Shown here: positions 4,177-56,550 of the stretch, piece by piece | Position numbering within the stretch: position 1 is the first letter of the stretch | Layout: the number at the start of each line of letters is the position of its first letter | From: a virus | Taxonomy: Duplodnaviria; Caudoviricetes | Strand: one strand, 5' to 3' | Virus record (IMG/VR): IMGVR_UViG_3300011008_001623 | Location: 4,412-68,411 of that record | Length of the DNA: 64,000 nucleotides | The notes under the pieces: generated by a model | Databases searched by the model: none | What the model was told of the DNA's origin: nothing | What the model saw: the letters and a program-made list of their open reading frames with translations, nothing else | Program-made: the position numbers and the translations under genes

Positions 4177-4860
4177 ATGGAAAGACAAATTGTTTTTAAA
4201 GCATTGACTGGCCCAAGAAATTATAACTTAAATATTGAATTAGACGAAAATTATAAAACTTTTGTAATGCCAACATTTAATGACTTATATGAAAGCATTA
4301 TATATATTGGGCAAAAAAGTTATGATATTAGAAAATTACCTAATTTTATTCAGCAATCAAATTTAAATTTTTTGGAAATGCTTTTTAGTAAAGATATCGC
4401 CGGCGACAATGAATTAATTGATTACTTAAAATGGCATAGATTTGAATTATCAAAAACTAATTTACATGATTTATACTATTTATGCATTAATAATTCAGAT
4501 TACCTAAAATCAAAAATGATAAATCAATCAGTAAAAAAAGGTTATGATTCAAAAACAGCTTGTGAAGCAATTCGTTTATTAGACTTTATTATACGTTTAG
4601 CAAAATACGATTTTAATTTTGAAAAAGCTTTGTGGTATGGAAATTCTTCAGGAAATCAAATTCAAAGATGTTTTTTAATGAATGTCAAATTTGGGAAATA
4701 TAACATTGAAGAAATTTACGAATTTTTAAATGAATATAGAGAAAAAGCTGTTCAATATAAAAATCTATTTATTCATCAAAAAGTAAATTCAAATGAATTA
4801 AATCAATTAAATGAATTTATTAAAAATTACGTAAGGAAAGGAATACAAAATGAACTTTGA
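4177..4860 (+). CDS. RlaP/Pol-beta-like nucleotidyltransferase homolog, catalytic motif degenerate
   Basis: LTGPRNYNLNIELDENYKTFVMPTFNDLY resembles the GS-x-NYNL..SDxDxK signature but has GP and DxN. Confidence 0.6.
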   Translation: MERQIVFKALTGPRNYNLNIELDENYKTFVMPTFNDLYESIIYIGQKSYDIRKLPNFIQQSNLNFLEMLFSKDIAGDNELIDYLKWHRFELSKTNLHDLYYLCINNSDYLKSKMINQSVKKGYDSKTACEAIRLLDFIIRLAKYDFNFEKALWYGNSSGNQIQRCFLMNVKFGKYNIEEIYEFLNEYREKAVQYKNLFIHQKVNSNELNQLNEFIKNYVRKGIQNEL

Positions 4861-28668: not shown

Positions 28669-29382
28669 ATGGGACGAAAACCAAAACAATTGCCTTTAAA
28701 TACTTTACCTGATGAAATTGATGAAGTAGAAAAAAAGCCGTCTAAAAAGAAAAAGAAACAATCATCAGAAGCAACAAAAGAATTAGTAAAAGATGTTAAG
28801 AATAATTTAAAAGAAATCAATAAAGAAATTTGCATGGCACAACAAACAAATTTCATTAATGGATTATATTTGCCACAATTTATTTTTAGAACATTTTTAG
28901 ACAGGATTGATCCAATTGAATATTGCGAAGATATTTTAAGAGGGCATTATCCCGAATCAAAACGATATCTTCATCAGAATCAAGTAGATTTAATTAGAGC
29001 AGCTTGTAATCCAAAAATAAAACAAGTTGCAGGATTAATGGCACGTCAGACTGGAAAAACAGAATCTATTGCATCAATGTCAGGATATTTTATTGATAAT
29101 TATCCTCAAATGAAAGTAGGAATTTTTACTCCTCGTTTACAACAGGCTGAAGTATCTATTGGAAGATTAAGTACATTCTTTCAAATGAATGAAGAACGAT
29201 TAAATCATAAAATTACAAAAATCACAAAAGATAGAATAGAATTAGACAATAATTCTTATGTAACAGCTGTTTCTGCATCTGACCAGTCAAACATCGAAGG
29301 TTTAACTTTTGATATTATGATACTTGATGAAGCACAAAAAATATCGAATTACACTTGGTCAGAAAGAATTGCACCAATGGGT
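28669..29382 (+). CDS. terL: terminase large subunit, exon 1
   Basis: Walker A ARQTGKT, Walker B ILDEAQ; ends ...PMG at the U of the P1 U-G pair. Confidence 0.9.
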
Positions 29383-30986
29383 AAACGCATTTGTATTGCA
29401 CTGCCCCCTTGTCAAGTAATTGGCATTGAATAACCTTTCTAATTGCTGGAAACTCGTAAAGCCATTTATACCTTATTAGGTTACGAAAGTAGAAACAAAT
29501 AAATGGATGATATATGGTTAAATCCTAAGTATCATAGCAATTTTTTATAAAAATTGCTGCAATCGACAATCAGCAGCTAAGCCTTATTTATAAGGAAAGT
29601 TCAACGACTAGTCTTTTATGACGTAGGGAAACCGAAATGGAAGGCTCCTTCTAAAAAGGATGAAGATATAGTCTACAATATATGGAAACATATAAATAAA
29701 TATTTCACCAAATTATATTATATATAATATAAAACTATAAAATGGAGGGTTTTATGTTATATAGAGCATTTAAAGTAAAAATTTATCCAACACATTTTCA
29801 AGAACAATATTTAAAATTATGTTTTTATACAAGAACATACGTTTATAATTGGTTTGTCGAAAAAAAAGAAGATTATTTTAGGGAAAATAAAAAAACAATT
29901 GGATTTTCATTTTTACATAAAGAATTTATGAAATATAGAAATGATATTCCCTGGATTTATGAAGTTAATTCTAGAATATATAGATTTGCTGAAAATGATT
30001 GTTCATATGCATATAAATCTTATTTTAAACAATTAACGGAAAAACCTAAAATTCAATCTTTTGATAAAAAACACTTTAGTTTAGATAGATGTCTTATTAT
30101 AGATAATAAAACATTTTATATAGCTGGAGGAAATGAGCCAAAGAAAAAAGAACGGCATGGATTTCATATAAAAACATCAGAAGATATTTCATTCTTAAAA
30201 AATGAAGATATTGTAAAAGTAACTATTACATTTGATAATTTAAACTATTATGCATCTTTTGATTATAAATGTCATCCAACAAATTATGATAAACATAAAT
30301 ATGATATTGTAGGCATTGATTGGGGATTGAAAACTTTTGCCACTCAATCAGATGGAAAATCATTTCACTTTAAAAAAGACGAAATGATAAAATTGGAACA
30401 TAAGTGTTCATATTTAAAATCAGTTTTAGATAAAAAAGAAAAAAATAGTAAAAATTATCAAAAGATAAAAAGAAAGCTAAATAAATGTTTTAAACGTATA
30501 ACTCATATACGAAGAGATTTCATAGATAAGTATACAACATGGTTATGTAAAACATATAAAACTATAAAAATTGAAGATTTAGATATCTTAAAAATGGCAA
30601 AAAATCATAAGCTAGCAAAAGCTATTTATAGAGGAGGATTTGGAATATTCAAAAATATGTTAAAGTCAAAATCAGAAATATATAATAATAATCTCATTTT
30701 AGTTGATGATAGAAAATTTGCCAGTAGTAAAATATGTAGTAATTGTGGATGTAAAAAACAAAAATTAGCATTATCTGAACGTACTTATAAATGCGAAAAT
30801 TGTGGATTGGAAATTGATAGAGATTTAAATGCTGCAATAAATATTGAGCACTATTAATGCTGCTAATTAATTATTCTTGGTGAAAGAAAAAAGACTTCTC
30901 TTGTATGTATATCGAATTTGTTATAAGCAGACAATAAAATATACATATATAAGAAAGTTAATTAAACGTTAAGTTTAATATCACAG
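29383..30986 (+). mobile_element. group I intron carrying tnpB (IStron-like), 1604 nt
   Basis: P7 strands GACTA (in TTCAACGACTA 29600-29610) and TAGTC (in GATATAGTCTA 29665-29675); P9 TATATG-GAAA-CATATA; IGS TTGCACT-GCCC 29396-29406 pairs with both exons; terminal G at 30986; splicing restores PMGGATNAKIIKIGTPK. Confidence 0.92.
29754..30857 (+). CDS. tnpB: TnpB RNA-guided endonuclease (IS200/IS605-IS607 OrfB family)
   Basis: RAFKVKIYPT HTH, RuvC-I GIDWGL, RuvC-II IEDL, Zn finger CSNCG/CENCG, RuvC-III DRDLNAAINI; ATG 29754 after GGAGG. Confidence 0.93.
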   Translation: MLYRAFKVKIYPTHFQEQYLKLCFYTRTYVYNWFVEKKEDYFRENKKTIGFSFLHKEFMKYRNDIPWIYEVNSRIYRFAENDCSYAYKSYFKQLTEKPKIQSFDKKHFSLDRCLIIDNKTFYIAGGNEPKKKERHGFHIKTSEDISFLKNEDIVKVTITFDNLNYYASFDYKCHPTNYDKHKYDIVGIDWGLKTFATQSDGKSFHFKKDEMIKLEHKCSYLKSVLDKKEKNSKNYQKIKRKLNKCFKRITHIRRDFIDKYTTWLCKTYKTIKIEDLDILKMAKNHKLAKAIYRGGFGIFKNMLKSKSEIYNNNLILVDDRKFASSKICSNCGCKKQKLALSERTYKCENCGLEIDRDLNAAINIEHY

Positions 30987-32036
30987 GGTGCGACCAATGC
31001 TAAAATTATTAAAATAGGTACTCCTAAAACTAAAAATCATTTTTATGATTCAGTAGAAGGAAAAGGTTCTGATAAATGGTGTGTTGTTAGAAGAGATTGG
31101 ACAGAATGTGCTCAGTTATGGGCATTAGGTGCGGTTTATCTTCCTGATAAAGAAACTGGAGAAATTAGACCTTATTCAAAATATGTATTGACTCAGCTTA
31201 TGCCAAAAGCATTAAAACAAGAATATTTCCCAAATAATCCTGAAGTTTGGACTGAAGGTGGTATGTCTATCGAAGACTTTAAAACGCAGTATATGTTAGA
31301 ATTTGTAGATGGTGCAGGAAGATTTTTAGATACTCCTCAAGTAGAACGATTAGCTAGTGGGGAATTTGATTGGTTAGAACGTGGACAACTGGGAGAATTA
31401 TATGTAGCAGGAATTGACTTTGCTGGTTCAAATCCTGATGGAGATAATACTCATATTACTGTATTAAGAATAAATCCTGATGGAACAAAACATAAAGTAT
31501 TTGCAAAAGAATTTTCTGAAACACCCTATCCACAACAAATGTATGAAATAGCTAATATGTTTGGAGGGTTTAATCCTAAATTTCAAGTTAAAAAAATATT
31601 TGCAGATTATACAGGTTGTGGAGCTGCGGTGATTCAGACATTACAACAAGAATTTGGAATGAAAAATTTAGAAGGAATTATTTTTAATTCTGGTGATAGA
31701 TTTACTCATTCAGGAACAAATCTAAAAAATACTATGTATAATCGTTTTAAAGTAGAATTAGATTCAGGAAGGATTTTATATCCAACTAAGGAACGGTTTT
31801 TGGCTTCAAAATATCCTAGTGCGGGTACAAATAATGTTGGATTTTATCATAAAATGATTGGAGAATGGTCTGATTTAGAATATATTATGACTACTTCAGT
31901 AAATAAAAAAATTGAAGCTCCATTGGGATATCATGATGATTGTTGTGATGCAGATGTTTTAGCTAATTTTGCTGCATTAGAAGGACTTAGACATAGGGCT
32001 CCAAAAGCAAGATTTGGGAATATATATAGATTTTGA
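30987..32036 (+). CDS. terL: terminase large subunit, exon 2 (spliced product 587 aa)
   Basis: GATNAKIIKIGTPK motif, nuclease GIDFAG, HDDCCDA; in frame with the ORF called at 31188. Confidence 0.9.
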   Translation, partial: GATNAKIIKIGTPKTKNHFYDSVEGKGSDKWCVVRRDWTECAQLWALGAVYLPDKETGEIRPYSKYVLTQLMPKALKQEYFPNNPEVWTEGGMSIEDFKTQYMLEFVDGAGRFLDTPQVERLASGEFDWLERGQLGELYVAGIDFAGSNPDGDNTHITVLRINPDGTKHKVFAKEFSETPYPQQMYEIANMFGGFNPKFQVKKIFADYTGCGAAVIQTLQQEFGMKNLEGIIFNSGDRFTHSGTNLKNTMYNRFKVELDSGRILYPTKERFLASKYPSAGTNNVGFYHKMIGEWSDLEYIMTTSVNKKIEAPLGYHDDCCDADVLANFAALEGLRHRAPKARFGNIYRF

Positions 32037-55476: not shown

Positions 55477-55696
55477 GTGAAACGAAATCATGGTACAAAA
55501 ACTGGTTCTAAATTATTTAGAAATTCTACTATAGTGGAACCAAATTCTACTGTGAAGCAAAAAATGCAAAAAAATAATAGGAGAACGAAGACAGCAACAT
55601 TTGATTTGAGATTAGGGACCCCTTCATGGTACCAACCCTTGTTTTCGTCCGTCAACATGTTGTTGCCGAGAGATCGTAGAGAACGAAACGAATGGG
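55477..55696 (+). CDS. portal protein exon 1 (boundary 55696 or 55697)
   Basis: GTG start after GAGGTGA; LLPRDRRERNEW continues as RHFYRTEP in exon 2. Confidence 0.8.
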
Positions 55697-56128
55697 TGGT
55701 ACCGTGCCCCTTGTATTAAGTAATTAGTACAAGCTATGGTATTAAATGCTTTGAATCCCTAAAGTCACACGACCGAAACAGTAATTTGAAAAAATAAGCT
55801 GAGGATTAATCCTAGGTGCGAAAGCAGAAAAAATAGTGTGAATGACATACGGTTAAATCCTAAGTGTTATTTATCATTTTATAAAATGATATGTAATGGG
55901 TCTTTAGCAGGGAAAGTCCTAAGTCTATTTTTAGATATGGAAAACCTTCAACGACTATCTCCTTGAGGGAGAGTAAAACTGCAATGCTAGCATTAAAATG
56001 CTTATGGCAGAAGAAAAATACCACTCCTAATTTTATTAGGATGAAGATATAGTCTATACTTATATGAAAATATAAGAAACGTTAAATCGTTTATTATAGT
56101 GTTGCGAACTATAATTAATATTAATTAG
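55697..56128 (+). mobile_element. ORF-less group I intron 1 of portal (432 nt; register uncertain by 1 nt)
   Basis: TTCAACGACTA 55947-55957, GATATAGTCTA 56046-56056, GGTTAAATCCTAAGT 55851-55865, P2 CTTGTA/TACAAG. Confidence 0.85.
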
Positions 56129-56159
56129 CACGCCATTTCTATCGCACAGAACCAATAAT
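56129..56159 (+). CDS. portal protein micro-exon 2 (31 nt)
   Basis: Encodes (A)RHFYRTEPI(I) and links exons 1 and 3 in frame. Confidence 0.8.
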
Positions 56160-56550
56160 AATTTTATTTAATTAAATTTTAAAAAATTAAATAAACTTGT
56201 TACCTTGTAAGGAAACTTGCATTGAAAAACTACTTGAATTGCTGAAAACCCCTAAAGATAATTGAACTACAACGTAAGGATGAAATAAACCTAAGCGTGA
56301 AAGTAGCGAAAGCAGAAAAAATCAATTATATAAATATAAGGTTAAATCCTAAGTATTTAATTGCATAAAATATATGCATAATAAATGGGCAATCATGCAG
56401 CTAAGTCTCGAATAGAGAAAAGTTCAACGACTATCTCGTAATGAGAGTACTATATTTTTTAATATAGGAAGTGGGTAGGCCTAAACATTTTTAATAAAAT
56501 GCATGGATAAGATATAGTCTAATCTTATATGAAAATATAAGTATCAAATG
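56160..56550 (+). mobile_element. ORF-less group I intron 2 of portal (391 nt)
   Basis: 5' site after U paired by IGS GTTA; TTCAACGACTA 56423-56433; GATATAGTCTA 56511-56521; terminal G 56550; splicing gives EPIIATALDMHTEFP. Confidence 0.88.

Follow-up and report, generated by a model that had tools for sequence, protein, structure and literature searches.

We analysed a 64,000-nt stretch of a virus genome (IMG/VR virus record IMGVR_UViG_3300011008_001623, positions 4,412 to 68,411), hereafter the window, in which the terminase gene terL is interrupted by an element that combines a group I ribozyme with a tnpB gene. We interpret this element as a non-autonomous, tnpB-only IStron of the IS200/IS605 type residing in a phage-G-like giant phage from the ruminant gut, and give this reading a probability of roughly 75%. 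The source is a viral contig of 68 kb from IMG/VR, estimated to be 41% complete. A first-pass annotation, made from the sequence alone, had described an insert that splits terL and contains an intron together with tnpB, and all the parts it described were found where it had placed them.

The limits of the element were set by its splice sites and by intron-less alleles. Exon 1 of terL (28669..29382, plus strand) comprises 238 codons of the ATPase domain, carries Pfam terminase ATPase signatures and ends with the codons CCA ATG GGT, while exon 2 (30987..32036, plus strand) comprises 349 codons and a stop, encodes the nuclease domain and matches Terminase_6C. Both exons could be aligned over their whole length with eight intron-less relatives, one of them Bacillus phage G (gp1). 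Residues 1-348 of exon 2 were 54.5% identical to phage G gp1, and uncultured phages of 416 kb and 504 kb had terminases 74-76% identical to that of the window. In tblastn alignments, the matches to exon-1 residue 238 and exon-2 residue 1 abutted without a gap in the eight relatives, all of which read PMG/G(A or G)TNAK across the site (the slash marks the insertion point). Because the eight relatives are contiguous here, the insert is exactly 29383-30986 (1604 nt, plus strand), and no junction can be shifted by one base. The end coordinate of 31006 in the first-pass annotation takes in 20 nt of exon 2. Compared with these relatives, the insertion was precise and had produced no target duplication. 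The junctions read GGGT/AAAC on the 5' side and ACAG/GGTG on the 3' side, and the joined exon frame restores the conserved PMGGATNAK. A search for intron-less terL relatives, suggested at the outset as a check, thus yielded these eight and, in addition, a metagenome allele (X6) described below. Within the insert, tnpB was the sole plus-strand open reading frame (ORF) of at least 60 aa. We rejected an ordinary homing-endonuclease intron, as no LAGLIDADG, GIY-YIG, HNH, His-Cys or PD-(D/E)xK protein is encoded. Homing endonuclease genes usually lie in a peripheral loop of a group I intron; TnpB had been assigned to that slot, but it lies in the 3' tail and not in a peripheral loop. A promoter and terminator scan gave matches at chance level only.

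The 5' part of the element is a group I ribozyme core spanning P2 to P9 (29403..29695, plus strand), which matched RF00028 over the full model (positions 1-253) with 77.7 bits and an E value of 1.4e-19. It carries a GAAA tetraloop and an 11-nt receptor extension, its P9 hairpin ends near 29694, and a gap of just 46 nt separates it from the tnpB region. The internal guide sequence (29396..29406, plus strand), read from the sequence, consists of UUGCACU for P10 followed by GCCC for P1. In P1, the exon-1 bases GGGU pair with GCCC, with a U-G pair at the cut formed by the last exon U and G 29403; in P10, UUGCACU (29396-29402) forms 7 bp with the exon-2 bases GGUGCGA (30987-30993). These are the pairings from which the splice sites had originally been read, and the intron-less relatives confirmed the boundaries they imply. 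From this architecture, the element is predicted to splice itself out of the terL transcript. Homologous ribozymes were found at related loci L015 (119.7 bits), L032 (116.7 bits) and L035 (84.7 bits). At the gathering threshold, an Rfam search of the 64-kb window reported no group I intron, and the 77.7-bit match appeared when 1.8 kb was searched; likewise, pooled Rfam searches of 34-43 kb lost ribozymes that scored 54-85 bits in short stretches. The missed ribozymes are a speed-filter artefact of long AT-rich searches and not a sign of absence.

The tnpB gene (29754..30857, plus strand) encodes 367 aa plus a stop. The mechanical ORF begins at 29742, and the start is likely ATG 29754, since homologues begin there; it follows a Shine-Dalgarno sequence, GGAGG, at 29744-29748. 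The ORF at 29742-30857 matched HTH_OrfB_IS605, OrfB_IS605 and Cas12f1-like_TNB in Pfam (E values of 1e-8 to 2e-19). The closest natural solved structure was ISDra2 TnpB (8exa/8h1j), with a full-length match at an E value of 1.7e-34. All three RuvC acidic residues had been noticed in the first pass, and an alignment of related TnpBs placed them (D189, E274 and D357), together with both CxxC pairs, in invariant columns. The protein therefore looks catalytically intact, and a nuclease-dead, TldR-like repressor was ruled out by the intact RuvC triad. In the window TnpB, S, R and R occupy the positions of the ISDra2 residues K76, F77 and Q80, which read the target-adjacent motif (TAM). Among isolated phages, the IS607-type elements of c-st and D-1873 were some of the best TnpB matches, at 33.5% identity. 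At window positions 30054-30065 (TnpB residues 101-104), the clade-invariant PKFKSKK has become PKIQSFDK, and the substitution L190W adjoins the catalytic Asp (GIDWG).

Downstream of the tnpB stop lies a structured tail of 129 nt, and an omega-RNA-like scaffold could be delineated at 30853..30986 (plus strand) from its fold and from compensatory changes across 10 loci. It comprises stem-loop 1 (SL1; 30853-30871), which spans the tnpB stop codon; SL2 (30874-30888), whose loop holds the pseudoknot strand GUGA at 30880-30883; a long SL3 (about 30893-30959); a subterminal hairpin (30961-30979) with a family counterpart in the right ends of related copies; the pseudoknot strand UCAC (30981-30984); and a terminal AG (30985-30986), the G being the terminal guanosine of the intron. 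Across the 3' regions of the ten aligned loci, three stems showed compensatory changes in 22 of 28 pairs. In the pseudoknot, the five-base SL2 loop, (G/A)-G-U-N-N, pairs with N-N-A-C at positions -6 to -3; it was fully paired at nine of the ten loci in four different pair combinations, namely GUAA with UUAC (loop with 3' strand; three loci), GUAU with AUAC (three loci), GUUA with UAAC (L134) and GUGA with UCAC (the window). Only 0.07% of shuffles paired as well, a figure that is indicative only, as the sequences are related. The double change private to the window argues that the RNA stayed under selection after divergence from its relatives.

In the ISDra2 structure, the pseudoknot occupies positions -6 to -2, position -1 is unpaired and the guide runs from +1 (PMC10097598); in the C. 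botulinum IStron, a pseudoknot likewise joins SL2 to the 3' end of the scaffold (10.64898/2026.03.11.711047). As the register here is that of the ISDra2 omega-RNA, the guide should begin at 30987, the first base of exon 2, with the scaffold predicted to end at the 3' splice site. The corresponding predicted 16-nt guide or target, GGTGCGACCAATGCTA (30987..31002, plus strand), consists of the first bases of exon 2 and is unique within the window at up to 3 mismatches. The roughly 130 nt of hairpins reported in the first pass are therefore present, except that the structure extends beyond the reported end 8 nt short of the splice site: UCAC at 30981-30984 reaches to 2 nt before it. The proposal that exon 2 is the guide gains from the covarying pseudoknot, which places the scaffold end at the splice site; its presentation as a new mechanism does not hold, as discussed below.

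Comparison of clade flanks suggested a candidate TAM, TGGGT (29378..29382, plus strand), which coincides with the 5'-exon strand of P1. The 5' flanks in the clade read TGGGT (five loci at the terL site of the window, site A), GGGGT, TGGCT, AGGAT and GGGAT, giving NGGNT as the putative TAM, and each known flank is matched by the internal guide sequence of that copy. Where the intron-less allele has TGGGT, the occupied allele has CACAG directly before exon 2 and differs at all five candidate-TAM positions, in line with the expectation that the occupied allele should be spared. No second target for the predicted guide occurs within the window. The residue equivalent to Q80 is R or K in all four TnpBs at terL site A (TGGGT), whereas G stands there in the copies with TGGCT, AGGAT and presumed TTGAT flanks, as well as in L138 (flank not seen). 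Two copies that have A at -2 nevertheless carry R or K, and the association between this residue and base -2 is a lead only.

A protein search set apart a group of TnpBs with 44-57% identity to the window TnpB, all others being at most 39% identical. In a maximum-likelihood tree, 14 full-length TnpBs formed a clade with 100/100 support, 44-50% identical to the window TnpB over their full length, and two truncated relatives can be added. All clade contigs resemble giant-phage DNA, and the clade was seen only in phage-like metagenome contigs. With the truncated relatives, it occupies at least eight sites: four in terL, one each in a ribonucleotide reductase (RNR) and a dCMP deaminase gene, and two in genes of no known function. 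Within terL, ribozyme and tnpB occur together at site A (L032, L034 and L137, with tnpB-deleted elements in L015/L019), in the Walker A region (L035), at MNEE/RLN (L134/L135) and at KW/CV (L314, in which tnpB is broken); the other copies lie in the RNR gene (L028, ribozyme 53.8 bits), the dCMP deaminase gene (L138) and the two genes of no known function (L136 and L312). The ribozyme sits directly upstream of tnpB in all clade copies other than L030 and L033, which are tnpB-only copies that share the clade 3' terminus. All members end in ...NNACAG (one in ...ACGG), directly against unrelated right flanks. Since ribozyme and tnpB are found together at no fewer than eight unrelated sites, the two appear to move as one unit. 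Small ORFs of the ribbon-helix-helix (RHH; Arc/CopG-like) type lie between ribozyme and tnpB in L034 (1539-1676), L134 (155-298) and L138 (382-516) and are missing from the window copy; RHH/Arc-like ORFs have been reported for IStrons (bioRxiv 10.1101/2023.11.20.567912). The contig of the ribozyme-less member L030 encodes two small acid-soluble spore proteins (1863-2648), which hints that these phages infect spore-forming Firmicutes.

Wider searches did not enlarge the clade. Alignment-based scans of IMG/VR, 185,579 prokaryote genomes and JGI metagenomes returned no clade member beyond the window among the matches listed, in which TnpBs reached at most 37% identity over full length. A single-protein scan of IMG/VR for TnpB relatives gave nothing, and a scan of IMG/VR for the right-end DNA pattern gave just two already known mini-IStron contigs and chance matches. 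Motif checks found no ribozyme of this lineage beside other TnpBs of related giant phages or in 80 IMG/VR TnpB loci, and within the limits of the scan made, no isolated phage in INPHARED carries the element.

The element has spread laterally to the same terL site. The four TnpBs at the window's site were not mutual closest relatives in the tree, and for L032 and L137 the well-supported sister sequences came from a different site or from a copy that lacks the ribozyme. The L015/L019 element equals the L032 element minus a clean 976 nt inside tnpB; the remaining 493 and 251 nt, which include dead tnpB fragments, were 97.4% and 98.4% identical between L032 and L015 in blastn, whereas the flanking terL exons were just 80-84% identical. 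Near-identical IStrons in such diverged exons are typical of lateral transfer into one and the same site. Among ruminant-gut metagenome contigs at least 90% like the window, three allelic states were present. The contig X1 carries the full element. The 518-nt contig X3 joins 29683 to 30985, keeping the ribozyme and the terminal AG and lacking tnpB and the 3' RNA. The intron-less X6 joins 29381 to 30993 across the element and reads ATGGGA-GGCGCA-ACCAATGC, also written ATGGGAGGCGCAACC, so that its candidate TAM and target read TGGGA plus GGCGCAACCAATGCTA. X6 departs from the predicted target by an A at TAM -1 and by mismatches at guide positions 3 and 6, and each of these changes is synonymous. 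Intron-less terL alleles of the kind proposed as targets in the first-pass annotation thus do exist in close relatives.

The defining layout of an IStron is a ribozyme first, an insertion sequence (IS) module in the 3' tail and element ends that are the splice sites (PMC4227781). The element shows a 5' ribozyme, a downstream tnpB, ends that coincide with the splice sites, a right-end scaffold with a pseudoknot, and joint mobility of its parts. As in IS200/IS605 elements, it is inserted 3' of a motif, NGGNT, without duplication and carries a subterminal right-end hairpin. No Y1 transposase (Y1_Tnp) or serine recombinase (Resolvase) is encoded in the 68-kb, about 41%-complete contig, which extends to the whole contig the earlier observation that the window lacks tnpA, and neither tnpA nor a remnant of it was found in the element or in any clade locus. 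The element is therefore non-autonomous; it remains an IStron, because ORF-B-only IStrons are recognised (PMC4227781). A lone IS200-type Y1 transposase (158 aa, PF01797, E value 8.7e-37) is encoded by a minus-strand ORF (1462-1938) of L139, the contig of L020, which belongs to a related 281-kb giant phage; it does not lie next to tnpB, and it is a possible in-trans source for this phage group.

Related elements and mechanisms have been described before. IStrons had been said in the first pass to be known from clostridial and Bacillus chromosomes, but IStrons on phage genomes (C. botulinum phage c-st and D-1873) were listed as early as 2014 (PMC4227781). For the C. botulinum IStron, it was shown in 2023 that TnpB cuts the empty site by means of a right-flank guide taken from the downstream exon, the scaffold being the 3' end of the intron and splicing and guide formation competing with each other; the same mechanism was argued for C. 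difficile IStrons (bioRxiv 10.1101/2023.11.20.567912; follow-up 10.64898/2026.03.11.711047). The mechanistic reading is thus reasonable but describes a known class. What is new is the phage-borne clade, its insertion sites, the covarying pseudoknot, the same-site spread and the natural alleles.

On this basis, the following sequence of events can be proposed. The 5' ribozyme would splice the 1604-nt element from the terL transcript via P1 and the 7-bp P10 and restore PMGGATNAK, so that insertion should cost the phage little. Some of these transcripts would instead be bound by TnpB and processed into omega-RNA, with the last ~135 nt of the intron as scaffold and the first ~16 nt of exon 2 as guide. 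The complex would then cut terL alleles in which NGGNT (TGGGT), the presumed TAM, stands directly before GGTGCGACCAATGC, that is, empty alleles. During co-infection, repair from the occupied copy would copy the element in, or the competitor would be damaged.

Several observations weigh against the reading of the element as an active tnpB-only IStron with this mode of action. No tnpA that could carry the element to new sites was found in the about 41%-complete contig or in the clade loci. The window TnpB has the longest branch of the clade (0.89) and is its most divergent member, deviating at 6 of 70 otherwise clade-invariant positions, including a lost basic patch (K101Q, K103F and K104D). The candidate TAM was deduced from five distinct flanks and is G-rich, and the TAMs of known IS605-type IStrons are T-rich (PMC4227781). 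At TAM -1, A or C occurs in seven of the nine intron-less alleles seen and T in the other two, and over the first 16 guide positions each of the nine shows 1-5 mismatches, so few known empty alleles would be good targets. Wobble-position differences between the exons of L032 and L015 continue as far as both junctions and affect guide positions 6, 9 and 15, and the co-conversion tract expected from break-repair homing is not visible between them. For simple homing by break repair between these lineages, this finding is neutral or counts mildly against it. Finally, the terL site of the window has seen two or more deletions of tnpB (L015/L019 and the X3 contig).

The divergence of TnpB and these deletions, together with the broken tnpB of L314 and the missing tnpA, would all be expected if the element were a relic, in which the ribozyme is kept because terL must splice while TnpB and its RNA, inherited and heading towards tnpB loss, no longer act as a nuclease here. 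We consider this somewhat unlikely, as the 367-aa frame is intact, all catalytic and zinc-binding residues are kept, all four stem-loops are retained and the window-specific compensatory double change GUGA/UCAC implies later selection on the RNA. The X3 contig raises another issue, since it joins 29683 directly to 30985 and keeps the ribozyme and AG. If tnpB were part of a distinct IS that had lodged in the 3' tail of a pre-existing terL intron and whose ends lay near 29684 and 30984, the guide would be AG plus exon 2 and the target would be the IS-less intron, TATAT then AGGGTGCG (also TATAT plus AGGGTGCGACCAATGC), not intron-less terL. An independent IS with its own ends inside the intron had been named in the first pass as a reading that would overturn the proposal, and the TATAT before 29684 does resemble the T-rich TAMs of IS605-type IStrons (PMC4227781), while tnpB-only, ribozyme-less copies exist (L030 and L033). 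However, those copies also end in ...ACAG, the ribozyme and tnpB have travelled together as described above, a guide starting from AG would put the pseudoknot at -4 to -1, a misfit to ISDra2 where the exon-2 start fits, and the X3 deletion removes half of P9 and looks like an ordinary deletion; the nested arrangement is therefore very improbable. Scarcely credible is an IS607-type IStron moved by a serine recombinase, like CboIStron, with TGGG as TAM. TGGG is indeed present at 29378-29381, and the c-st and D-1873 matches mentioned above are of this type, but a T stands between TGGG and the element, and the unshiftable boundaries leave no shared GG core. We rejected IS607 membership and prefer the IS200/IS605 type because T is the last base of the 5' flank, the right end reads CACAG rather than CGG, there is no GG core, no resolvase-type gene is encoded in the contig, and the best structural relative is the IS605-type ISDra2 TnpB.

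Even if the element is an active IStron of this type, its use to the phage may be read in different ways. TnpB might serve primarily as a weapon that cuts the essential terL of co-infecting intron-less relatives, with intron copying secondary to interference competition. A protein homing endonuclease in an intron of a giant Pseudomonas phage has reportedly been found to act in such a way, the gene targeted here is essential for packaging, the clade occurs solely in essential genes of giant phages, and intron-plus and intron-less alleles share a habitat. We nevertheless regard this as quite doubtful, since most empty alleles seen carry TAM or guide-region changes and nothing separates a weapon from selfish homing. 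A further, tentative and on balance unlikely idea is that an IStron without a transposase has become a true RNA-guided homing intron: the following exon would program TnpB, which would promote copying of the intron at that site in co-infecting relatives or disable them, rare new NGGNU sites would be reached by reverse splicing guided by the internal guide sequence, with the guide reprogrammed on arrival, and the apparent match between the Q80 equivalent and base -2 would reflect a nuclease adapting to its home site.

Further introns and inteins were observed in these phages. Two group I introns without ORFs lie in the portal gene of the window (55690-56550). They score 45.2 and 44.4 bits in Rfam and belong to the same lineage as the terL ribozyme, to which they show blast similarity. 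Portal intron 1 ends with the clade right-end hairpin, longer than that of the terL copy, and the terminal motif (TTATAGTGTTGCGAACTATAA, then TTAATATTAATTAG, about 56092-56128), and looks like an IStron minus tnpB and most of the omega-RNA. Three related phages carry terL inteins of about 1.09-1.11 kb (Cys ... His-Asn/Thr) at L011:2909-3994, L014:556-1647 and L020:2888-3994, which replace an Ala codon two codons downstream of the IStron site (PMGG/C...HN/TNAK). The presence of intein and IStron at the same ATPase motif marks it as a shared landing site for unrelated selfish elements. In four IMG/VR contigs of relatives (L021-L024), tblastn matched terL as seven or more pieces spread across about 6.4 kb, suggesting that this single gene contains numerous introns or inteins. 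The RNR gene of L028 (1-5720) lay in at least six pieces with intein signatures, and its last gap holds the ribozyme and tnpB after TGSSGG, just before a conserved Cys.

IStron biology was worked out in Clostridia, where TnpB is thought to guard the element against loss after excision by TnpA. The clade described here is a natural case without a visible transposase, in lytic-type giant phages that meet only in co-infection, and TnpB would accordingly have to act there as a homing or competition nuclease. The locus offers one defined target, one natural escape allele and one alternative register. The same-site spread, the repeated loss of tnpB and the four terL sites provide population-level material on the gain-and-loss cycle of an RNA-guided homing element. 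For annotation, the lesson is that fragments will be called in place of whole terL, portal, RNR and dCMP deaminase genes in such phages.

Among known systems, CdISt1 and the CdiIStrons of Clostridioides difficile and other 'group A' IStrons (PMC4227781; bioRxiv 10.1101/2023.11.20.567912) share with the element a 5' group I (IA2-like) ribozyme, a downstream tnpB, an omega-RNA (here a predicted one) in the tnpB 3' untranslated region, ends that are the splice sites, a target motif that has T as its last base and is complementary to the internal guide sequence, and a right end in CAG. Many group A copies have no complete tnpA, they occur alongside free-standing introns and IS copies without an intron, and some relatives carry an RHH/Arc-like ORF. 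They differ in their targets (TTGAT, ATTAT and TTTAT versus the G-rich NGGNT, here TGGGT), and the present element lacks even a tnpA remnant, belongs to a clade found only in phage-like contigs and has a TnpB about 33% identical to other known TnpBs. The IS607-type 'group B' IStrons, comprising CboIStron of Clostridium botulinum and CbISt3/CbISt4 of c-st and D-1873, resemble it in their location on a phage or plasmid-prophage, their G-rich target and a pseudoknot between SL2 and the scaffold 3' end that overlaps the 3' splice site. Empty-site cutting by a right-flank guide was shown experimentally for group B and is predicted here; a serine recombinase, a GG core at both junctions, the TAM TGGG, a CGG end and a 5' exon not ending in U are group B features, none of which is present here.

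The ISDra2 TnpB-omega-RNA complex (8exa, 8h1j; PMC10097598) is similar in its full-length protein match, RuvC triad, zinc finger and the pseudoknot register beside the guide, but it has no ribozyme, its TAM is TTGAT and its TAM readers are K76, F77 and Q80, replaced here by S, R and R. The phage homing-endonuclease introns of T4 td, SPO1 and Twort resemble the element, itself predicted to splice, as self-splicing introns in essential genes that occur at the same site in diverged phages, with intron-plus, ORF-less and intron-less alleles coexisting. In contrast to those introns, the nuclease here is predicted to be RNA-guided, is encoded in the 3' tail and would take its guide from within the intron-exon transcript itself.

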